Below are positions 16,038 through 63,988 of a stretch of 64,000 bases of DNA, one piece after another (within the stretch, counting starts at the first letter, position 1; each line of letters begins with the position of its first letter). The notes under the pieces are model-generated. The model did no database searches. It saw only the letters and a list, made by a program, of their open reading frames with translations, and had not been told where the DNA came from. Source of the stretch: Escherichia coli (lineage in GTDB: Bacteria > Pseudomonadota > Gammaproteobacteria > Enterobacterales > Enterobacteriaceae); assembly GCF_001677475.2 (NCBI RefSeq), contig NZ_CP015229.1; one strand, 5' to 3'. The translations under genes were made by a program, and so were the position numbers.

Positions 16038-16843
16038 ACTTTTTCTACACCACGAAACGGCATGAAGAACGGCTTTCCCGTCAGAGGATTTATTGATGCG
16101 TGAACATCAACGTCAAAGACAGCTTTTACCAGCTCAGGCGTGCAATGCTCCCCCTCATTCAACACACGCACCACTTTCCCCTGGCGTAAAAATATCAACG
16201 TATCGCCATAATTGACGGCAAAATTCAGATCATGCAACACCACGACGACTGTACGCCCGTGATGACGCGTTAAGTCATGTAATAACTCAAGAATTTCAAC
16301 CTGATAACGTAAATCAAGCCAGGTTGTGGGTTCATCCAGCAGGATATAAGGCGTCTTTTGCGCCAACACCATCGCAATCCAGCAACGCTGGCGCTGCCCA
16401 CCAGAGAGTTTTTCAACCGGTAAATGTGCAAACTCCTGCGTACCGGTTAATTTCAGGGCCTCTTCTACCGCCTGCTCGTCGGCGTCGCTCCATTGACGTA
16501 TGAAATTTTGCCAGGGAAAACGCCCACGCGACACCAGTTCATAAACGGTTAAGCCCTCCGGCAATAATGGCGACTGCGGCAAGATCCCAAGTCTACGGGA
16601 TAACGCTTTCGTTGGTTGCTCGTGAATCGCTTTACCATCCAGCAATATAGAGCCGCCCATAGGCTGCAAGATACGTGCAATGGTGCTGAGCAACGTCGAC
16701 TTTCCACAGCCGTTTGCCCCAACCAGAACGGTCATTTTTTCTGTGGGAACGGAGAAAGAAACACCATCAACAATGATCTTCTTGTGATACCCGGCAGAAA
16801 CATTGTCGAGGATCAGCCCCTGCCCTTTTGCGTTATGTGCCAC
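16034..16843 (-). CDS. fitB: Iron-siderophore ABC transporter ATPase (FecE/FepC-like)
   Basis: 269 aa, Walker A GANGCGKST, signature LSGGQRQR, Walker B ILLDEPT. Confidence 0.92.
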   Translation of the reverse strand: MAHNAKGQGLILDNVSAGYHKKIIVDGVSFSVPTEKMTVLVGANGCGKSTLLSTIARILQPMGGSILLDGKAIHEQPTKALSRRLGILPQSPLLPEGLTVYELVSRGRFPWQNFIRQWSDADEQAVEEALKLTGTQEFAHLPVEKLSGGQRQRCWIAMVLAQKTPYILLDEPTTWLDLRYQVEILELLHDLTRHHGRTVVVVLHDLNFAVNYGDTLIFLRQGKVVRVLNEGEHCTPELVKAVFDVDVHASINPLTGKPFFMPFRGVEKV

Positions 16844-17118: not shown

Positions 17119-17216
17119 ATATCCGATGGTGAAATAACAAACGGATAGTGCTTAGTGAGCAACAAGAAACAATTTTCACTCACGACAATCCGTGAGTTTT
17201 TGGGATAACAGACTAA

Positions 17217-30484: not shown

Positions 30485-30640
30485 AATCGTTACTCTCTCC
30501 CATCCGGACTCTAACCGTCGGCCCCGGAATTACACCGGATCTGCTGTCCTTTGAGTTCGCACCCAAAGCGCTCGCGGGCTTTCAACTGAGTTGATTTACC
30601 GCCGGTGGGGAATTTCGCCCCGCCCTGAGAATAAGCGGAT
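30485..30640 (-). promoter_or_regulatory. FMN riboswitch (RFN element) in the ribB leader
   Basis: Minus strand reads ...ttctcagggcggggcgaaattccccaccggcggtaaatc...ccggtgtaattccggggccgacggttagagtccggatgggagagagtaacg, which are conserved RFN core segments. Confidence 0.88.
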
Positions 30641-34069: not shown

Positions 34070-34213
34070 AACGGGAAAGCCCCTCCCGAAGAAGGGGCCT
34101 TATAGAAGGAAAGGGTTATGATGAAGTTCGTCATCATACTGATTGTGTTGTTACTGTTAAGTTTCCCGACTTACTAACAACTCATCAGAGGGGGGAGAAA
34201 TCCTCCCTTACCC
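34070..34213 (-). ncRNA. sib: Sib-type antisense antitoxin sRNA (QUAD repeat), ends approximate
   Basis: It is fully antisense to the ibs ORF. On the minus strand a TAAAGT -10-like box precedes aagggtaagggagg, and the terminator gcccct-tcttcggg-aggggc is followed by a T-rich tract near 34075. The location between yqiK and hldE matches K-12 sibD/sibE. Confidence 0.7.
34118..34177 (+). CDS. ibs: Ibs-family 19-aa hydrophobic type I toxin
   Basis: Hand translation gives MMKFVIILIVLLLLSFPTY*, preceded by aaggaaaggg. It closely resembles IbsD/IbsE as I recall them. Confidence 0.8.
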   Translation: MMKFVIILIVLLLLSFPTY

Positions 34214-34233
34214 TTGTTCCTTTACTTTAGGTT

Positions 34234-34289
34234 GAAAAAAAAACAGCGTCAATAGATCTGCCTGCTACGAAGCGAGATCTGTGAAGCGC
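34234..34289 (-). terminator. hldE terminator (long imperfect hairpin plus T9)
   Basis: Minus strand reads agcgcttcacagatct...agatctattgacgct followed by ttttttttt. Confidence 0.65.
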
Positions 34290-54351: not shown

Positions 54352-54475
54352 ATTTACTCCTTTCTAACATCACCAGGAAAAGTATAACGAATTGAAAATA
54401 CATTGTTTATAAAAACAGCAGGCGCGCGGTAATGGCTGGATTGCGACACGGAGTTACTTTATAATCCGCTACCAT

Positions 54476-54551
54476 GGCCCCTTAGCTCAGTGGTTAGAGC
54501 AGGCGACTCATAATCGCTTGGTCGCTGGTTCAAGTCCAGCAGGGGCCACCA
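54476..54551 (+). tRNA. ileX: tRNA-Ile2 (anticodon CAU, lysidine-modified)
   Basis: 76 nt, ggcccct...aggggcc acceptor stem, anticodon loop ctCATaa, T-arm ggttcaagtcc, encoded CCA. The position after mug matches ileX. Confidence 0.92.
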
Positions 54552-56085: not shown

Positions 56086-57514
56086 GTGACGCTCAATACT
56101 TCTCAGGTCAGTTACTATATGACTCAGCGTAAGAAAGGTATAACTCAGCATATCTCGGCCATGAAGGCTGGTATCTCAGTCCGTTCTGGTCGTCGGATCG
56201 AAAAAGGAGAGTGGGCAAAAAACAGTGTTCGGCACTGGCGCACACGCAAAGATCCTCTGGAAGCTGTGTGGGACAGCATGCTTGTTCCTCTGTTGAAAGA
56301 GAGGCCGGCTCTGACACCAACAACTCTACTGGAGATGCTACAGGATAAATATCCCGGCCAGTACCCCAACAGCCTTCGAAGAACAATGCAACGGCGGGTT
56401 CGCGAATGGAAACTACAGTATGGTACAGAGCAGGAGGTCATGTTCCGCCAGCAACATCAGCCCGGCCTGCGAGGCCTGTCGGACTTTACTGAACTGAAAG
56501 GTGTAGTTGTCACCATCGCCGGTAAGTTGTTGGCGCATAAGTTGTATCACTTCCGTCTGGAATGGAGCCACTGGAGCTGGATGCGGGTTGTTCTGGGTGG
56601 TGAGAGCTTCTCTGCTCTGGCTGAAGGCCTGCAGGAAGCCCTCGGACAACTGGGCGGAGTGCCGGTAGAACATAAAACGGACAGCCTGAGGGCAGCATGG
56701 AAACAACAGGGCGAAGATGGACGCCGCGAGCTGACTGAGCGTTATGCTACTCTCTGTCAGCACTACGGAATGCAGGGCGTACACAATAATGCCGGTCGGG
56801 GCCACGAAAATGGCTCGGTTGAAAGTGCCCACGGACATCTGAAAAGGCGTATCTGTCAGGCGCTGATACTGCGGGGCAGTAACGACTTCAGCACCATAGA
56901 AGAATATCAGGCCTTCATCACTCAGCAGGTTATGCGGCACAACCGTAACAATCAGGATCTGGTCAAGGAAGAACGTCTTCATCTGAAACCGCTGCCGCTT
57001 CGTCGCAGTGCTGACTATGATGAGCTGACTGTGAGGGTTAGTCGCAGCAGTACCATCAATGTGAAGCACGTCGTCTACAGCGTACCTTCCCGGCTTGTAG
57101 GTCAACTGTTACGGGTCAGGTTATGGGACGATCGTCTGAGCTGTTACGTTGGCAGCAGCGAGGTCATGAGCTGCCCTCGCGTCAGACCAGAAAAAGGGAA
57201 GACGCGGGCCCGTCGTATCGACTTCCGACATGTGATCGACAGTCTGGCAAAAAAGCCCGGTGCGTTCTGCCATGCAACGCTGAGAAATGACATCCTGCCG
57301 GACGATGAATGGCGGAGGCTGTGGCGTCGCTTATGTAATCATCTGGAGCCCGATATGGCAGGAAGGCTGATGGTACATGCCGGGAAACGTGGATCTGCAC
57401 CGGCTGATGCGCTTCCTGGGTATAAAAGAAAAGGCGTTGCCGGTAGTCAATGTGATACAGCATAACCTGAGCAGTTATGAGCAACTACTGCGTGGCAAGG
57501 GAGGTTCGCAGTGA
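56086..57514 (+). pseudogene. istA: IS21-family transposase IstA with an apparent frame disruption near the 3' end
   Basis: The track ORF 56086-57465 (459 aa, HTH plus DDE region) ends in ...HAGKRGSAPADALPGYKRKGVAGSQCDTA. The +1 frame from 57371 reads WYMPGNVDLHRLMRFLGIKEKALPVVNVIQHNLSSYEQLLRGKGGSQ*, and its TGA overlaps the istB GTG (GTGA at 57511-57514). That overlap is the canonical istA/istB junction. Confidence 0.65.
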
Positions 57515-58266
57515 GCAATATCCATCACCTTGAACATAGCCTGCGTAAACTACGCCTGACACGAGTTGGAGCTGAATGGCACGCTCTGGAAAAACGAGCG
57601 CTGGCAGAAGGCTGGACACCATCGCGCTATCTTCTGACGCTATGCAATGAAGAACTCCTGTGGCGCGAGAGTGAAAAACTGCGTCGTTATAAAAAGGAGG
57701 CCCGGTTGCCAGTTGCCAAAACGCTGAGCGAATACGACTTCAGTCAGGTGCCGGAACTGAATGGAGCTCAGTTCCGGCAACTCTGTGAAACGACAGACTG
57801 GGTTGATGCAGGAGAAAACGTTCTGCTGTTCGGAGCCAGCGGGTTGGGGAAAAGCCATCTGGCGGCAGCGATCGTGGATGGCGTAGTAGGTCAGGGCTAC
57901 CGGGCCCGGTTCTACAGCGCAGGAGAGCTGTTGCAGGAACTACGTAAAGCCAGAGCTCAGTTGAAACTGAATGAGCTGCTACTGAAACTGGATCGCTACC
58001 GGGTGATAGTGGTGGATGATCTTGGCTATGTCAAACGCGATAGTGCCGAAACGGGTGTGCTGTTCGAGTTAATAGCGCATCGCTATGAACGTGGGAGCCT
58101 GGTGATAACCAGTAACCATCCGTTCAGCATGTGGGGCAGCATCTTCGTGGATGAGACTATGGCGGTGGCTGCGGCAGACAGGCTGATCCATCACGGATAT
58201 ATGTTCGAACTGAAAGGGGAAAGCTACAGGAAAAAGACAGCGAAGGCAGTAACAAGCGCGACTTGA
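57511..58266 (+). CDS. istB: IS21-family ATP-binding helper IstB
   Basis: 251 aa, Walker A GASGLGKSH, Walker B VIVVDDLG. A GGGAGG Shine-Dalgarno lies upstream of the GTG. Confidence 0.92.
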   Translation: MSNIHHLEHSLRKLRLTRVGAEWHALEKRALAEGWTPSRYLLTLCNEELLWRESEKLRRYKKEARLPVAKTLSEYDFSQVPELNGAQFRQLCETTDWVDAGENVLLFGASGLGKSHLAAAIVDGVVGQGYRARFYSAGELLQELRKARAQLKLNELLLKLDRYRVIVVDDLGYVKRDSAETGVLFELIAHRYERGSLVITSNHPFSMWGSIFVDETMAVAAADRLIHHGYMFELKGESYRKKTAKAVTSAT

Positions 58267-58325: not shown

Positions 58326-58541
58326 CTAATATCGTAAGAGTTCATCATCATCAATCTCGCCTTTGTCGTTTGTAAGCTGGCTAATTGCATTGTTAACCCT
58401 ATTGTCTATCACGCTGGCAACATCATAAAACGCCTCACGGCCTTTACGTTCAACGGGAGTCACTCCCCACTTGTCGAATGCTGTAGCACTTACCCGGCAG
58501 CTTTGCGCCATGGTTTTTTTGTTCATCAGGTGCGATTTCAT
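58326..58541 (-). pseudogene. Nu1-type terminase small subunit, N-terminal winged-HTH part (truncated at the IS junction)
   Basis: (MKSHL)MNKKTMAQSCRVSATAFDKWGVTPVERKGREAFYDVASVIDNRV... compared with lambda Nu1 MEVNKKQLADIFGASIRTIQNWQEQGMPVLRGGGKGNEVLYDSAAVIKWY (recalled). It lies about 150 nt downstream of cosN, as in lambda. The reading frame hits a TAG exactly at the IS end. Confidence 0.75.
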
Positions 58542-58559
58542 CAATATCCCAACTTGGTC

Positions 58560-58718
58560 AAGGTTTCAGGTTGGTGTGTTGGTGTTATCTTTCCCTTTTT
58601 ATTCATGGAGATAGAGCAAACAACAAAACCACCACCACCCCCCTGAAAAAGCTCATAAATAGCGAAAAACCGCGAGGTCGCCGCCCCGTAACGGGTCCAT
58701 ATGCCGGAAAGGACCCGT
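58560..58718 (-). other. Lambda-type cos site: cosQ-like and cosN core (58651-58718) plus a divergent cosB-side region (58560-58650)
   Basis: Minus strand reads ttACGGGTCCTTTCCGGcatatggacccGTTACG GGGCGGCGACCT CGCGGtTTTTCGCTATTTATGAgc.... Capitals match the lambda right end ...ACGGGTCCTTTCCGGTGATCCGACAGGTTACG and the left end GGGCGGCGACCTCGCGGGTTTTCGCTATTTATGAAAA as I recall them. The 12-nt cohesive-end sequence lies at 58675-58686. Confidence 0.85.
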
Positions 58719-58747: not shown

Positions 58748-59161
58748 TCAGATGGTTTTCAGTATGCGATCGATGTCGCCATCATCGCCCGGGTTTCTGC
58801 CAGCGTATGCCATACCAGCTGATACGGCTTTCGGGCTGTGCATGTCCATAAAGTTTTCAAAGGCTGCGGTAAGCTCTGGTGCAACCTTCTGGCGTTCCTG
58901 CTCTATGGTCATGCTAAGGATGCTTTTAGCCGTACCAACATCGATACAAGGCACGTTTGCCATTGCACGTAACAGCGGCTGATAGTCGCCAGATTCATCA
59001 AGCGCCATAATCGCATCAGAGCGCGGCTTGTCCTTCTCTTCCAGGCTGTTAAGTTGATATACGGCCTCGTAGGTTGATAAACCTCTGTCAGCCATTGCCC
59101 GCGCTTCGGCCTTAAATTTACTCGCCAGCGGTAGCGTCATGATGCTTTCATTCGTTGCCAT
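58748..59161 (-). CDS. Hypothetical 137-aa protein, last gene of the capsid block
   Basis: The ORF has a GAGGGA Shine-Dalgarno 12 nt after the gpD-like stop. I recognise no family. It is acidic with helical character. Confidence 0.6.
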   Translation of the reverse strand: MATNESIMTLPLASKFKAEARAMADRGLSTYEAVYQLNSLEEKDKPRSDAIMALDESGDYQPLLRAMANVPCIDVGTAKSILSMTIEQERQKVAPELTAAFENFMDMHSPKAVSAGMAYAGRNPGDDGDIDRILKTI

Positions 59162-59173
59162 CGTTCCCTCTGC

Positions 59174-59509
59174 TTATCGGGCCAGTGGCTGAACGGATAC
59201 GCCAGAACCCGCAAAGGCGGCGCATTTTTTCGCATCGGTGTCGACGCTCTCAGGCCAGTTAACGGCGGCGATATTAAATATCCCCGTCTTATAGCACTGT
59301 GCTGATTTCTGCGTCGACGTGTCAACGGGGTACGAGGTCAGATAAACAGCCTTGCCAGATTCCTGACCATCCCACGGCTTAAACTCGCCATTTTCCGCCA
59401 GCATCAGCGGGGTAAATTCCTGAATAACTCCAGCATCAGCGGCAAAATGTACCAGCGTCGTGGATACCTGCTGACTGCCTGCAAATAACTCAATGTATGG
59501 AGTGTTCAT
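59174..59509 (-). CDS. Head decoration protein, lambda gpD-like
   Basis: 111 aa. Shared motifs with lambda gpD (recalled): TPLML, WDG, YK(S/T)G.F, WPE, AFAG..(I/V)S(I/V). GGGGGA Shine-Dalgarno. Confidence 0.8.
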   Translation of the reverse strand: MNTPYIELFAGSQQVSTTLVHFAADAGVIQEFTPLMLAENGEFKPWDGQESGKAVYLTSYPVDTSTQKSAQCYKTGIFNIAAVNWPESVDTDAKKCAAFAGSGVSVQPLAR

Positions 59510-59520
59510 AGAATCCCCCG

Positions 59521-60576
59521 TTAAGCAATTTTGACGGTAACAAATTTGCGAATATCTGCCGGTACCGGCTGCGGTGCGCTGTGCGTCTGCACGTACTCAA
59601 TCGCCGGATCGCCATCCTCAATCCAGTTTTTCGGGTAGTACATGTTTTGCGTTGCGCCAGTTCTTACCGCTTCCGGATCCATAATCGCACCATAGGCCAC
59701 CAGCCCTTTATTGTTAGTGTTGCCCAGGACAAGCAAATCAGGCTCAAGGAAATATTTTTCGGTGCCATCGCTGTCGGTGTATTTGCCGGAATAGACGATA
59801 AGGGCCAGATCACCCAGATAGCCTTTAAAGCTCACCACTTCGCCCAGGTTTTTACAGGCCAGCTCTGCGGCGGATTCTGAACCACGGGAAAGATCGTACA
59901 GTTCACGGAATTTTTTAAAGCTGCGTAACGTGCGCCATACCTCAGCGCCCATAATCATGACGTTGGCGGGGCAACCAGCCTGATCGGTGTATAGTTCGAT
60001 GTCATAGATTGGATCGTGTGTTTCCTTATCTGCCTCAGACCACTTTTTGCCCGATCCCTGCGTAATGATGTTTTTAGTCGGGATTTTCCAGTCGATTTCG
60101 TATCTATTTATTCCTTCGCCCTCAATGATGTTTTTTCCGGTCGTGACCGCATTCACCGCCAGCCATTCTATGCGAGCTTTAATAGCGTTTACCTGGCGGC
60201 GCATGTTGCCAGTAATCAGGCGCATACGGCGATAAGTTGGATCGTTAAGCTGTGCCGGATCTTCTCCAGCCATGCGCATGATGGTTTTTGATGGATCGAT
60301 TTCGTGTTTTGGTTTCATATAGCCAGGGCGGATAGTGCTTGTTTCGTACCCTTTATCGCGCTGAACCTGACTCCCCACCATAGGCGAACAAAAAGCCGAC
60401 ATGGTGACTTCTTCAATATCCAGGGTATCTAACATGATGTCCTGCGTGTTGAAGGTTGCCACGTTCGGGAAAAACAGCGACGTAAACAGCGGACTGAATT
60501 TAAATTCCGAAATATCCCCACGATTCAGGTACGCGAAAAGCTGGTTAGTGTTAAGTGCCGTTGCTTTGCCTGTCAT
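59521..60576 (-). CDS. Major capsid protein, lambda gpE family
   Basis: 351 aa. FKFSPLFTSLFF vs lambda FKFDPLFLRLFF; PGYMKPKHEIDP vs PGYVKPKHEVNP; DPTYRRMRLI vs DPAYRRRRII; YPKNWIEDGDPA vs YPKNWVTTGDPA (lambda recalled from memory). Confidence 0.9.
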   Translation of the reverse strand: MTGKATALNTNQLFAYLNRGDISEFKFSPLFTSLFFPNVATFNTQDIMLDTLDIEEVTMSAFCSPMVGSQVQRDKGYETSTIRPGYMKPKHEIDPSKTIMRMAGEDPAQLNDPTYRRMRLITGNMRRQVNAIKARIEWLAVNAVTTGKNIIEGEGINRYEIDWKIPTKNIITQGSGKKWSEADKETHDPIYDIELYTDQAGCPANVMIMGAEVWRTLRSFKKFRELYDLSRGSESAAELACKNLGEVVSFKGYLGDLALIVYSGKYTDSDGTEKYFLEPDLLVLGNTNNKGLVAYGAIMDPEAVRTGATQNMYYPKNWIEDGDPAIEYVQTHSAPQPVPADIRKFVTVKIA

Positions 60577-60782
60577 TATTCACCCCCATGAGTCTGATTC
60601 ATGCCCAGCGCCGCGCGTAAATAGGCGCGTACCTGCCAGCCTGTTGACGGCTCAACCATCGCCAGCGGCTCAAGTCCTGCCGCAATGCCTGCTTTTACGT
60701 TCTGCTGGTGGCGTTCCTTGAGCGCCTCCACGATGTCTGGGCTTATGTAAACTGTCACCCCGCCTTTTTTCTCTTCTGCCAT
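60576..60782 (-). CDS. Hypothetical 68-aa protein, first gene of the capsid block
   Basis: MAEEKKGGVTVYISPDIVEALKERHQQNVK... from the ATG at 60782 with a GAGGAA Shine-Dalgarno. Its stop overlaps the capsid ATG (TAATG). The track ORF starts 11 codons earlier. Confidence 0.55.
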   Translation of the reverse strand: MAEEKKGGVTVYISPDIVEALKERHQQNVKAGIAAGLEPLAMVEPSTGWQVRAYLRAALGMNQTHGGE

Positions 60783-60810
60783 AGTCGGAAATTCCTCTTT
60801 GACGTTAAAA

Positions 60811-60846
60811 ATCACAACTGGATGTTCATCCAGTTGTGATTATAAT
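60811..60846 (-). promoter_or_regulatory. 30-bp perfect palindrome (operator candidate) abutting a symmetric GATTATAATC -10 element
   Basis: atcacaactggatg-tt-catccagttgtgat (60811-60840), with TATAAT readable on both strands at 60839-60846. It lies about 30-60 nt upstream of the first capsid-block gene. Confidence 0.6.
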
Positions 60847-60950
60847 CATGATTTCATTTTACGCAATAATGTTGAGTTGTGTTGCAAATTGTGAAATGAT
60901 TTCCGGCAACAGTAGTCACCATACTGTTAGATAAAAGCCTCATATGCAAA

Positions 60951-60988
60951 AGCCCGATAAGACCCTCTGACCTTATCGGGCTTTTTTT
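60951..60988 (+). terminator. Strong hairpin plus T7, oriented for the plus strand
   Basis: agcccgataag-accctctgac-cttatcgggct followed by ttttttt. No annotated plus-strand gene lies upstream. Confidence 0.6.
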
Positions 60989-60995
60989 GGGGCAT

Positions 60996-61017
60996 AAAAA
61001 AGCCGGACTTCTCCGGC
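60996..61017 (-). terminator. Intrinsic terminator after ssb
   Basis: Minus strand reads gccgga-gaag-tccggc followed by tttttt. Confidence 0.8.
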
Positions 61018-61033
61018 TTCTGTTACTCGTTGC

Positions 61034-61456
61034 TTAAAACGGTATGTTATCCCCGTACGGATCATCGTTACCCGCCTGTTGTTTTGCCCTGTTCAGTGCG
61101 TCAGTAGCCTGCCCTTGCTGGCCTTTTTTGCCGCCCGGTCGCGCCGTTCTCGCACTGATTACGCTGTCTGCGATAACCTGCCAGCCCTGCCGCGTTTCGC
61201 CGTTCTGGCCTGTCCACTGGCTTACCTGCATGTTACCCGCCACGCTCACCAGTTCGCCTTTGTGGTGTTTTGCCAGTGCGTCGGCCTGTCTGCCAAACGC
61301 CAGGACGGATAACCACATCGTCGCCGTTCCGTCATCTGCCTGGCTGCACGGAAGGGGGACCGCCATACTAGCCATCGTCATTTGTGTACCCTTGCTGGTG
61401 GTCTTTAACTGCGGGTCAGCCACCAGCCGCCCGTAAGCCGCTATCTGTGCTGTCAT
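61034..61456 (-). CDS. ssb: Single-stranded DNA-binding protein
   Basis: 140 aa. OB-fold N-terminus, G/Q-rich linker and an acidic C-terminal tip DDPYGDNIPF (compare the E. coli SSB tip DDDIPF). Confidence 0.88.
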   Translation of the reverse strand: MTAQIAAYGRLVADPQLKTTSKGTQMTMASMAVPLPCSQADDGTATMWLSVLAFGRQADALAKHHKGELVSVAGNMQVSQWTGQNGETRQGWQVIADSVISARTARPGGKKGQQGQATDALNRAKQQAGNDDPYGDNIPF

Positions 61457-61743: not shown

Positions 61744-61972
61744 CTTCACCTGTTCACCTTTTGATATTTTCCATTTAAATTCATACTGTTAAGGGGTGAA
61801 CAGTTTCACAAAAACTATTCACCAACTGTTCACCACTGTTCACCCTTGAAGCTCAATAAACAACCAAAAAGGTGAACAGTGAATAGTTTGGTGAATAGTT
61901 CATAAATAACTGTTCACCCTATAATATACTGATATAAAAGATATTTATGACAGGGTGAACAGTGGTGAACAG
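61744..61972. repeat. Iteron field / candidate replication origin
   Basis: GGTGAACAG or its complement CTGTTCACC occurs at 61750, 61795, 61826, 61836, 61871, 61910, 61954 and 61964. The variant GGTGAATAG/CTATTCACC occurs at 61815, 61878 and 61890. AT-rich spacers lie at 61759-61790 and 61919-61950. The field sits directly 3' of the primase-helicase gene. Confidence 0.8.
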
Positions 61973-61985
61973 TTATTCCATAAGT

Positions 61986-63803
61986 TTAATTTTTGCTATC
62001 GTCATTAGTGACTGATACACATGATGGCATCCAGTCTTCTGATTCCTCCGTCAGTGTCACGTTTGAACGTAAACCGTGCTTCGTTTTCCGTTTTATATAC
62101 TCCCTGCCATATTCCGCCATTGCCCCAGGCATATCTTTACCGAAGCGCGTCAGTGTTACAGGTTTACCAAACCCATGAGCCCTCATATAAGCCAGATAGG
62201 CATGATAGAGATACCTGCGCGGGCTGAATGGCACAATTTCAGCATTACCCACTAACAGGCCATCACACATTACCGACGCCATGAGATAGCCGCAGAAGTC
62301 CACCAGCGAATCCCCCTCTCGCTTTATCGCCAGTGCTTCTTCAGATTTCTGCTGCTCATATAACAGGCGTCTGGCTTCGTCCTGGTCAGCAAACCTTGTA
62401 AGCAGATGGCGAATCACTACCGCCAGCTCACCTTCTATTTTTTCCGCCAGCATCGGATCGCGTTCGTTCTCCGGTACAACTTCCGAAAAATTGAATATCA
62501 CCCGACGACGTGAGATCCCCCCGCTGCGGTCACTGAATGACATGGCGTTATTGTTAACCGCCAGCACTACTGCCGGAATACGCGTTGAGTAGGGGGCTTT
62601 GTGTTTCGGGTCAATTGCCACCTTGTCACCGCCTGTAATGGCCTTAATTCCTGCCCCATCACCAGCGTAGCGGGTCATATCCGGCATGATAATCAGCGAA
62701 AAGCCAACCACTAACGCGCGTTCCCTTGCATCTTCCAGCGCCTTCATGCTTGCCGATACTGTGTTGGCCTTACCCGCCAGCATGGTGCAAATCTCCGCCA
62801 TCACGCTTTTACCACTTCCCCCTGGACCTGTTACCTCAATGAATAACTGCCAGTCGTACCGGTTCGCCAGCACCATGAATAATGCAGCCAGTACGCGATC
62901 CGCCTTGCGGTCATTCTCAGCCACCGAACGGCGTAACCACTTCCAGAAATTCGGCGCATGTGTTGCCAGCGTTTCCCCCTCTGCTGGTGGGCTGAAAGGT
63001 AATTCACTGGCAATTAACAACCAGTCGTTTTTGTTATGCTCCCGAAAATTACCTGTTCTGGTATCAAATACCCCGTTACTGAATCCAATCAGGTTACGGG
63101 CTGTATTCCCCATTACAGGCAAACTTAACTTCATGGTATCGACCGCCGATTTAATGGCGTTCTGCGAATAGCTGATCTCCGCATCAATGAAAATCTGCGC
63201 CATAGCACGCTGTAACTCTTTATCCTGAACCGGCTCCCATACAACGCCGTTGTAATGGTGAACAGTGTCAGAGTCAGCATGAATCGCCAGTTCACCGCCA
63301 TAATGTGCCAGGAGAACTTCGCCGCGTTGACTTGCTCCCATCTGGTTAAGCGCCAGTGATGAAGCGTTATCGTCTTTTACCCGCTCTTTTTTCTTTACAG
63401 GCAGTTCAACTACCTTTTTCTTTTCCGCCAGCTCTGCCCGTTCACGTTCCAGATATTCGCGCCAGTTCTCCCGTTTCTGGCTGTGCATTCCTTCAGGATA
63501 ATAATCAGCATCCCTGACACCTGCCGCTGCCAGTTTCTGCCCGATGGTATTAACAAGCCCCGGACGCAATAACCCCGCCTGGTAGAGACGCACACGATAG
63601 CGTCCGTCCGGTACGATTTGCAGGTTGTCCAGTTCGGCAAGTTGTTGCTCTCCAAGCCAGACAGGAGGCACGTTATCGCCAGCCAGTCGCCCGTCCTGTT
63701 CCTGCCACTGCTTCGCATGTGCCCACGCATCACTACCCGCAAAAATGATGACTTCCGTCATTTTGTCACGTGGCTGGTGTTTTAAATTTGGCGCTTTTTT
63801 CAT
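61986..63803 (-). CDS. P4/D5-type primase-helicase (N-terminal primase-like region, D5_N, SF3 helicase)
   Basis: About 605 aa from the ATG at 63803 (MKKAPNLKHQ...), Walker A GPGGSGKS, Walker B-like SLIIMPD. The ATGA overlap with the upstream small ORF supports this start. Confidence 0.88.
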   Translation of the reverse strand: MKKAPNLKHQPRDKMTEVIIFAGSDAWAHAKQWQEQDGRLAGDNVPPVWLGEQQLAELDNLQIVPDGRYRVRLYQAGLLRPGLVNTIGQKLAAAGVRDADYYPEGMHSQKRENWREYLERERAELAEKKKVVELPVKKKERVKDDNASSLALNQMGASQRGEVLLAHYGGELAIHADSDTVHHYNGVVWEPVQDKELQRAMAQIFIDAEISYSQNAIKSAVDTMKLSLPVMGNTARNLIGFSNGVFDTRTGNFREHNKNDWLLIASELPFSPPAEGETLATHAPNFWKWLRRSVAENDRKADRVLAALFMVLANRYDWQLFIEVTGPGGSGKSVMAEICTMLAGKANTVSASMKALEDARERALVVGFSLIIMPDMTRYAGDGAGIKAITGGDKVAIDPKHKAPYSTRIPAVVLAVNNNAMSFSDRSGGISRRRVIFNFSEVVPENERDPMLAEKIEGELAVVIRHLLTRFADQDEARRLLYEQQKSEEALAIKREGDSLVDFCGYLMASVMCDGLLVGNAEIVPFSPRRYLYHAYLAYMRAHGFGKPVTLTRFGKDMPGAMAEYGREYIKRKTKHGLRSNVTLTEESEDWMPSCVSVTNDDSKN

Positions 63804-63988
63804 TTCTGCTCTCTCCACGCGGCAATCATGTTTTTCAGTTCCTGTAGTTTTTTATCAACATCCATACATGACACATGGTTATTTCTGGAAGGCGGGATTT
63901 CCCGCCGGAATCTGCAAATAAAGATCTCCACGTTCAGCGAGCTATGAAATGAATAGCCATCACGAATAAAATACACACGGTCAAACAT
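63800..63988 (-). CDS. Hypothetical 62-aa protein translationally coupled to the primase-helicase
   Basis: ORF MFDRVYFIRDGYSFHSSLNVEIFI...KKLQELKNMIAAWREQK. Its stop overlaps the primase ATG. Confidence 0.45.
   Translation of the reverse strand: MFDRVYFIRDGYSFHSSLNVEIFICRFRREIPPSRNNHVSCMDVDKKLQELKNMIAAWREQK

Follow-up and report, generated by a model that had tools for sequence, protein, structure and literature searches.

A predicted LexA box within a terminator-like palindrome at the late promoter of an Escherichia coli phage satellite

Introduction

Operon I in Staphylococcus aureus pathogenicity islands (SaPIs), a packaging and interference module, is under the control of LexA (Ubeda et al., 2007, as summarized in PMC5052747), and in Gifsy prophages LexA regulates dinI-like and antirepressor genes (Lemire 2011, as cited in PMC8072944). 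Phage-inducible chromosomal islands (PICIs) of Escherichia coli are switched on via AlpA, and alpA expression follows the helper phage, not the SOS response (PMC6092414). The searchable PICI literature does not describe control of the late module, and searchable publications on E. coli PICIs mention LexA only when citing the SaPI paper. Here, we analyze a 64,000-nt stretch of the E. coli contig NZ_CP015229.1 (assembly GCF_001677475.2; hereafter, the window), which carries a satellite of the Gram-negative PICI type, as judged from its gene content. A perfect palindrome precedes the capsid operon of this satellite; its inner 20 bp resemble proven LexA boxes and would place the late module under the host SOS repressor.

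Results

A perfect palindrome covers the predicted start of the late operon

The features at the site are as follows.

60810–60841, full perfect palindrome, consisting of the predicted LexA box and 6 extra bp on each side
60816–60835, predicted LexA (SOS) box AACTGGATGAACATCCAGTT (minus-strand reading), CTG-N10-CAG, ruvAB/cho type
60839–60844, minus strand, predicted -10 hexamer TATAAT of the late promoter, within the self-complementary TGATTATAATCA (60837–60848)
60861–60866, minus strand, predicted -35 hexamer TTGCGT, 16 nt upstream of the -10 hexamer (TTGCAC in most relatives)
60807–60811, minus strand, T5 run directly after the hairpin (T6–T7 in relatives)
60793–60799, minus strand, Shine-Dalgarno sequence AAGAGGA of orf68, invariant in alignment A2
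60576–60782, minus strand, orf68, first gene of the late operon; its stop overlaps the start of the capsid gene
59521–60576, minus strand, major capsid protein, lambda E-like (Pfam Phage_cap_E, E 3e-52)

A repeat finder returned an inverted repeat with 100% complementary arms of 15 nt at 60810–60824 (AATCACAACTGGATG) and 60827–60841 (CATCCAGTTGTGATT), 2 nt apart; the palindrome of 30 bp with 14-bp arms described in the original prediction is therefore present, with each arm 1 bp longer. With the search restricted to perfect arms of 14 nt or longer and spacers no longer than 10 nt, the 64-kb window yields just this repeat and a nearby terminator, and 100 shuffles of the window contain none of that quality.

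The palindrome abuts GATTATAATC (60838–60847), which is its own reverse complement. TATAAT can be read at 60841–60846 on the plus strand and at 60844–60839 on the minus strand, as had been pointed out. This is the less remarkable half of the observation: any ATTATAAT gives TATAAT on both strands, and a functional plus-strand promoter is unsupported, since that strand offers no usable -35 element (best TGGATG, 3/6). On the minus strand, the weak TTGCGT anticipated 16 nt upstream of TATAAT lies at 60866–60861. It matches the consensus at 3/6 positions, which is why a simple promoter scan did not list TTGCGT-16-TATAAT. The predicted start, 7–8 nt past the hexamer, falls at ~60832/60831, inside the palindrome, and the minus-strand open reading frames (ORFs) downstream are orf68 and the Phage_cap_E capsid gene, placing the site in front of the capsid operon; both points agree with the original prediction.

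The inner 20 bp match proven LexA boxes

The consensus of LexA boxes is TACTGTATATATATACAGTA (PMC8072944). At 60816–60835, AACTGGATGAACATCCAGTT has CTG and CAG 10 bp apart around an A/T-rich centre. The palindrome core, CTGGAT-N4-ATCCAG, has the arms of the proven ruvA box CGCTGGATATCTATCCAGCA and is close to the cho box CACTGGATAGATAACCAGCA, both listed in Table 4 of PMC3009722. To score the match, we used a heterology index (HI) matrix of our own, built from 18 published sites in that table and distinct from the original Lewis matrix. The window 20-mer has an HI of 6.98/7.43, which falls among the values of established LexA-binding sites: the 18 proven sites span 0.3–9.3 (0.6–12.8 leave-one-out), with 6.5 for ruvAB and 5.7 for cho vs 7.0 for the window box. 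In 20 shuffles of the window, 0 sites reached an HI of 6.98 or below, and just 0.026% of 200,000 random perfect 32-nt palindromes scored 7.0 or below, so few that the match to LexA boxes is not a by-product of palindromy.

The predicted box starts 3 nt past the conserved TATAAT and ends 33 nt ahead of the ATG. With a start 7 nt after the hexamer it covers ~-3 to +17, promoter and start both being predictions. In Salmonella, the distance between SOS box and ATG ranges from 0 to 236 nt, and the tightly controlled boxes extend over the start site (PMC8072944); the predicted box thus has a position that SOS promoters typically show.

The best-supported reading of the site, which we consider probable, is a host LexA box that forms the inner part of a longer palindrome with terminator-like features. 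A LexA dimer would sit on 60816–60835, across ~-3 to +17 of a sigma-70 promoter, and in undamaged cells would block RNA polymerase at the late promoter. DNA damage would activate RecA, LexA would cleave itself and the late operon would open in the same event that induces lambdoid helper prophages. The genes thus gated would be orf68 and those for the E-like capsid, D-like decoration, Nu3-like and Nu1-like proteins, together with cos. Promoter firing at the predicted place, LexA binding and repression are what we infer from the match. The original prediction of a gate for a dimeric regulator of late expression was right in kind, as the palindrome, a putative dimeric repressor site, lies over the predicted late start and its inner 20 bp fit LexA boxes by score, and wrong about the key: the gate is probably opened by DNA damage, not by a helper-phage protein.

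The box is conserved and the full symmetry is not

Neither the capsid protein nor an orf68 alignment found a relative in scans of species-representative genomes, so the comparative data were drawn from IMG/VR, E. coli genomes and contig look-ups. The set comprises 80 IMG/VR loci found via the capsid protein, the complete islands of Nissle 1917 and O157, more distant copies, from Salmonella, Pluralibacter and others, found via orf68 homologues, and more IMG/VR loci from a pattern scan; 93 distinct family contexts were compared. A 220-bp segment spanning the site has matches in 598 of the 5,426 complete E. coli genomes, O157:H7 and Nissle 1917 included. These two strains carry the same late module behind different early regions, which indicates that the promoter region travels with the late module.

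CTG-N10-CAG is retained in 81 of the 93 contexts, the Salmonella and Pluralibacter copies among them, with HI values of 5.2–9.2, and in 80 of the 81 the box begins exactly 3 nt past the -10 hexamer. In one context, an extra inserted nucleotide would disrupt the spacing of the box. In Pluralibacter, only the inner palindrome is left, shifted 12 nt downstream; the box lies 15 nt after the -10 hexamer, and CTG, CAG and their spacing are kept. The -10 hexamer is TATAAT in all box-carrying lineages and TAAAAT in lineages without the box.

CTGGAT and AT.CAGT show no variation across 15 haplotypes, in contrast to the palindrome's centre and outer arms. The sole core substitution, ATCCAG to ATACAG (5 contexts), breaks a G-C pair of the stem and improves the LexA match (HI 5.5–6.0). 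Stem pairs 5–7 are variable, some changes being compensated and others giving G.U, and pair 5 is a G.A mismatch in 8/15 E. coli haplotypes. The Salmonella copies have an internal loop in the palindrome, and no comparable hairpin was found in the TAAAAT lineage or in the distant loci L094 and L095. The eye-catching 30-bp symmetry emphasized in the original prediction is thus not the conserved feature of these sequences: pair 5 is mismatched in over half of the haplotypes, and some lineages have no palindrome.

Another reading denies the perfect symmetry any function of its own. A young inverted duplication, or a quasi-palindrome tidied by template switching, could sit at a promoter that works without it; lineages that lack the palindrome retain the promoter, dyads, T-run and operon, and the degree of perfection differs between haplotypes. 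Against this stand the LexA-box score and a core that stays the same in copies from E. coli, Salmonella and Pluralibacter with flanks that diverge by 10–30%. We regard a functionless symmetry as very improbable.

A hairpin could form in read-through RNA

The palindrome could act mainly as RNA, a 14-bp hairpin plus a U-run serving as an intrinsic terminator or insulator, with the likeness to LexA boxes secondary or irrelevant. The two terminators that already lie upstream weigh against this possibility.

60996–61020, minus strand, terminator T1 after ssb, GCCGGAGAAGTCCGGC then T6
60948–60991, terminator T2, A-run, 14-bp stem and T-run (T7 tail on the plus strand, T4 on the gene strand)

Minus-strand RNA would form a 14-bp stem with a GAAC loop, and the 65-nt leader folds at -21.4 kcal/mol. 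T5–T7 follow the stem in every E. coli-type copy, and a terminator scan lists hairpin and T-run of the Nissle 1917 copy as terminator-like. Among the 15 haplotypes, 94% of the stem cells are paired, two pairs have changes in both partners, and for covariation the stem outscores 498/500 shuffles; another compensated pair, C-G to U-A, is found in relatives. G.U cells outnumber C.A cells (8 vs 3), which favours the gene strand. The outer helix persists in Salmonella despite a 1x2 internal loop, and the shortened Pluralibacter hairpin is again followed directly by T6.

Other observations argue against a role mainly in RNA. Because the 5' arm begins in the -10 hexamer, ahead of the predicted start, RNA initiated at the late promoter would lack most of it and could not fold into the whole stem; a start 7 nt past the hexamer leaves just a 4–5-bp hairpin. 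For transcripts from the adjacent promoter, the site is not a wholly transcribed hairpin that ends a transcription unit. The full hairpin would appear only in read-through RNA that has passed both T1 and T2. Its stem is mismatched at pair 5 in 8/15 haplotypes and loses a G-C pair in the ATACAG variant, its base is A/U-rich, and the T-run in the window is too short for the scan criterion: the terminator scan did not list the hairpin here, where two bases of the T5 run are paired in the stem. Structure alone gives no reason for invariant CTG and CAG at fixed spacing, nor for the LexA-box score. Compensated changes in quasi-palindromes can also arise via template switching without selection. Rfam gave no match at gathering score in the region and, at E up to 10, just weak terminator-driven matches. 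We consider it unlikely, if possible, that the palindrome works mainly as RNA, halting read-through from the replication genes or attenuating the leader. If the inner 20 bp are a LexA box, the outer pairs, 6 bp on each side that reach into the -10 hexamer and up to the T-run, may be an extra insulator against read-through from the replication genes or a product of template switching.

Two upstream dyads point to a possible second regulator

Two further dyads lie upstream of the palindrome.

60852–60866, dyad O1 over the -35 hexamer, family consensus TTGCA-N5-TGCAA, degenerate here (TTGCGTAAAATGAAA)
60882–60896, dyad O2, TTTCACAATTTGCAA (TTTCA-N5-TGCAA), exactly 30 bp upstream of O1

In the family, both have the form TT[G/T]CA-N5-TG[C/A]AA, each with two TGCA boxes 9 bp apart. 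All lineages keep them, even ones that lack the LexA box, and they are better conserved than the palindrome; the 30-bp offset recurs in L094 and L095. Read along the gene strand, the conserved cassette consists of T1, T2, ~40 variable nt, O2, O1 over the -35 element, TGATTATAATCA, the palindrome, T5–T7, AAGAGGA and the ATG.

Located at -35 and -65, the TGCA dyads suggest a putative second regulator, for which Orf68 and CytR are candidates. The model of Orf68 has a beta-alpha-alpha arrangement that weakly resembles ribbon-helix-helix (RHH) domains, an assignment that was not significant by Foldseek, hhalign or Pfam. The family is small (phrog_3255), with few homologues even among 1.8 billion proteins. 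Its predicted DNA-reading strand, GGV[ST]VYISPD, is identical in all lineages, those without a palindrome included; the operator of Orf68 should therefore be an invariant motif, that is, O1/O2. For CytR, whose octamers are described in PMC3454398, the half-sites are octamer-like, the orientation differs and flanking CRP sites are absent; we keep it as a lead only.

In every lineage examined, the stem of T2 is preceded by an A-run and followed by T7 when read on the plus strand, compared with just T4 on the gene strand. Together, the palindromic -10 element and T2 leave room for a divergent plus-strand RNA of ~140 nt (~60853–60990). The box, if real, would also cover the -35 region of this RNA. 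Rfam has no match for the 60853–60990 stretch, the middle of which comes in two unrelated sequence types. The known small RNA Esr41 was rejected as a counterpart, being located in SpLE1, and a preprint on Pas small RNAs does not mention PICIs or satellites.

Helper-phage regulators and antitermination are poorer explanations

The original prediction had keyed the gate to a helper-phage factor. Under this reading, a dimeric protein different from LexA, from a helper phage or from the satellite itself (orf68, for instance), would use the palindrome as its operator. The half-site ATCACAACTGGATG was found in the window only as the two arms, with no further copy beyond chance, and three complete relatives contain a single occurrence, inside a primase gene. 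Lambda has no related site, no TTGCA-N5-TGCAA dyad and no similar promoter, and neither promoter nor palindrome has a match in 50,697 phage records; an operator shared with a helper phage was found neither there nor in the rest of the window. A scan of IMG/VR for O1 plus the -10 hexamer returned only this family and 43 chance matches in a coding region of unrelated phages. As for Orf68, its predicted DNA-reading strand stays constant in lineages that lack the palindrome, and its RHH assignment is not significant. We regard a non-LexA operator as quite improbable; the indicated regulator is host LexA.

AlpA was rejected as a binder: the alpA promoter of the Nissle PICI has AAACGGT repeats, not a palindrome or TGCA dyads. 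These repeats form a dyad in AAAACGGTGTATACCGTTTAAAAACGGTGGG, found upstream of alpA-like in the island of Nissle 1917 (locus L082, 16700–16800, gene strand), a candidate AlpA autoregulatory site unrelated to the motifs of the late promoter.

The consensus TATAAT, followed at once by a hairpin and T-run, also recalls a Q-type (or Pseudomonas aeruginosa AlpA-type) antitermination cassette, in which a constitutive promoter, a binding element and a sigma-dependent pause precede a terminator overridden by an antiterminator from the helper. The helpers are lambdoid phages with the late regulator Q (PMC11364771), and a weaker promoter-like sequence upstream, TTCACA-18-CATTAT, would place TATAAT in the transcribed region. 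Its -10 candidate, however, is the least conserved part of the region, and TATAAT would then lie at ~+16 to +21, beyond the AlpA pause elements at -1 to +5 (PMC9371919). Past TATAAT itself, there is no conserved -10-like element; the variable left arm lies there. Comparison with lambda and the phage collection found no region like lambda PR', and the satellite AlpA, 65 aa long, is unrelated to the Q-like AlpA of Pseudomonas. An antitermination cassette is, in our view, barely credible. The palindrome region was also rejected as a cos site, cosN lying elsewhere (58675–58686).

The satellite and its genes

The genes around the site are all on the minus strand, and the site lies between two terminators and the first late gene. 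Other features of the element are the following.

61986–63818, minus strand, D5-type primase
61790–61980, iterons, ACTGTTCACC / GGTGAACAGT repeated at least 8 times in the two orientations, a short way downstream of the primase gene
61034–61456, minus strand, small ORF and ssb
59174–59509, minus strand, head decoration protein, lambda D-like (Pfam HDPD, E 5e-18)
58748–59161, minus strand, Nu3-like protein of 137 aa, similar to the C-terminal (scaffold) part of head maturation proteases (phrog_1999; phrog_53 E 1e-8)
58675–58686, minus strand, exact lambda cosN GGGCGGCGACCT
58326–58544, minus strand, 5' remnant of a Nu1-like small terminase gene that an IS21-family element interrupts
56086–58266, IS21-family element (istA 56086–57465, istB 57511–58266) inside the Nu1-like gene, leaving a 72-codon stump
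54476–54551, tRNA(CAT)

A four-zone layout has been described for Gram-negative PICIs (PMC10111431). Of the order int, alpA, primase and ori, followed by a late zone and a specific site, the window contains the primase, iterons, ssb, the late zone and the tRNA gene, and in E. coli A33, which has an identical copy, the element extends upstream into DUF4222, an Icd-like gene, a 65-aa helix-turn-helix gene and an integrase. The iteron block occupies the position at which PICI replication origins are described. The pair of E-like and D-like genes fits the description of c1499/c1500 of EcCICFT073 (PMC6092414). The exact lambda cosN and its lambda-like flanks (58640–58700, minus strand), between the Nu3-like and Nu1-like genes, indicate that the satellite carries a lambda-type cos site. 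An intact Nu1-like homologue is present in the Nissle 1917 island (Phage_Nu1, E 2e-23); no PDB sequence match identified the Nu1-like protein as Rpp. The copy in the window is probably defective for packaging functions.

In A33 (NZ_CP028742.1, 4256537–4281137), the satellite is present in at least 3 tandem copies, and five places in the genome were matched; many A33 genes carry frameshift annotations, possibly a matter of assembly quality. Two RNAs that Rfam recognises in the window's chromosomal portion, an FMN riboswitch and a Sib antitoxin RNA at 30488–30636 and 34103–34252 (both minus strand), are ordinary and unrelated.

Further LexA-like sequences were seen nearby and in relatives. At 54401–54420 (plus strand), 55 nt upstream of tRNA(CAT) and next to the satellite, the window has CATTGTTTATAAAAACAGCA (HI 6.3), its left half reads TTG in place of CTG, and the small matrix may have picked it up falsely. 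The early regions of related islands contain such 20-mers as well: in the Nissle 1917 island, TACTGGTTTTCTGTACAGCT (17153–17172, HI 7.7) is flanked by int and the first early ORF, and in the O157:H7 island (locus L083), TAGTGTATAAAAAACCAGTA (16771–16790, HI 5.0), with GTG for CTG, lies upstream of the alpA-like gene.

Discussion

The palindrome, its position, its match to proven LexA boxes and its conservation pattern were computed directly. Several points weigh against control by LexA. The HI rests on a small matrix from one published table, promoter and start site are predicted, and the role of LexA is read from sequence. G/C at positions 6/15 (CTGG/CCAG), where most sites have T/A, would be expected to give middling affinity, like that of ruvAB. 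The 11 contexts of the TAAAAT lineage, as well as L094 and L095, lack the box and keep the remaining promoter, so SOS control is dispensable. LexA leaves the outer arms, the compensated changes and the T-run unexplained. Finally, alpA of EcCICFT073 is reported to be SOS-independent (PMC6092414), which would limit SOS control to the late module, and helper infection without SOS induction would leave the gate closed unless repression is leaky.

If the box is real, the satellite would follow a two-key logic, in which the helper signal triggers excision and replication, and host DNA damage triggers capsid formation and packaging. A mobile capsid operon would be added to the E. coli SOS regulon, a prediction that concerns strains of medical or biotechnological use (O157:H7, Nissle 1917) and PICI-based delivery vehicles. 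A fuller proposal combines all elements of the region: the PICI late module, present in about 600 of 5,426 complete E. coli genomes, would be an unrecognised member of the SOS regulon through a dual-purpose palindrome, a LexA operator over +1 as DNA and a terminator as read-through RNA; O1 and O2 would be read by an Arc-like RHH protein, Orf68, and there would be room for a LexA-controlled divergent small RNA of ~140 nt. In its entirety, this proposal is distinctly unlikely.

Among known systems, the site recalls intrinsic terminators: on the gene strand, a stable predicted hairpin leads into a T-run, and the scan lists a relative's copy as terminator-like. It differs from them in lying after a -10 element rather than a gene, in a 5' arm that precedes the predicted start, in its A/U-rich base and in the conservation of its sequence. 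In the immI region of P22, Pant is controlled by the RHH proteins Arc, encoded by the first gene of the operon, and Mnt. Orf68 and O1/O2 may play comparable roles, a small beta-alpha-alpha protein being encoded by the first gene after a promoter with short dyad operators; unlike Arc and Mnt, Orf68 is a weak, model-based candidate for the RHH fold.

With the ruvAB (CGCTGGATATCTATCCAGCA) and cho (CACTGGATAGATAACCAGCA) boxes, the predicted box shares the CTGGAT...ATCCAG arms, the spacing, an A/T-rich centre and a similar HI. Unlike them, it has a centre, GAAC, that is not pure A/T, is embedded in a 32-bp perfect palindrome with a T-run, and belongs to a mobile element instead of a repair gene. 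As in the Gifsy prophages, a promoter of a mobile element would be wired directly to host LexA; the Gifsy genes trigger prophage induction, whereas the predicted target here is the structural and packaging operon of a satellite.

SaPI operon I offers the nearest parallel in organization. In both cases, a capsid/packaging module of a satellite lies downstream of the replication genes and is controlled by the host SOS repressor, as experimentally shown for the SaPI and predicted from sequence here. The early genes answer a helper-specific signal, via Stl in SaPIs and via AlpA in Gram-negative PICIs. The hosts, the LexA motif (here the E. coli CTG-N10-CAG) and the genes (here homologues of lambda E, D, Nu3 and Nu1) are unrelated. 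The likeness, if real, would be convergent, with unrelated staphylococcal SaPIs having reached the same solution as the satellites of E. coli.

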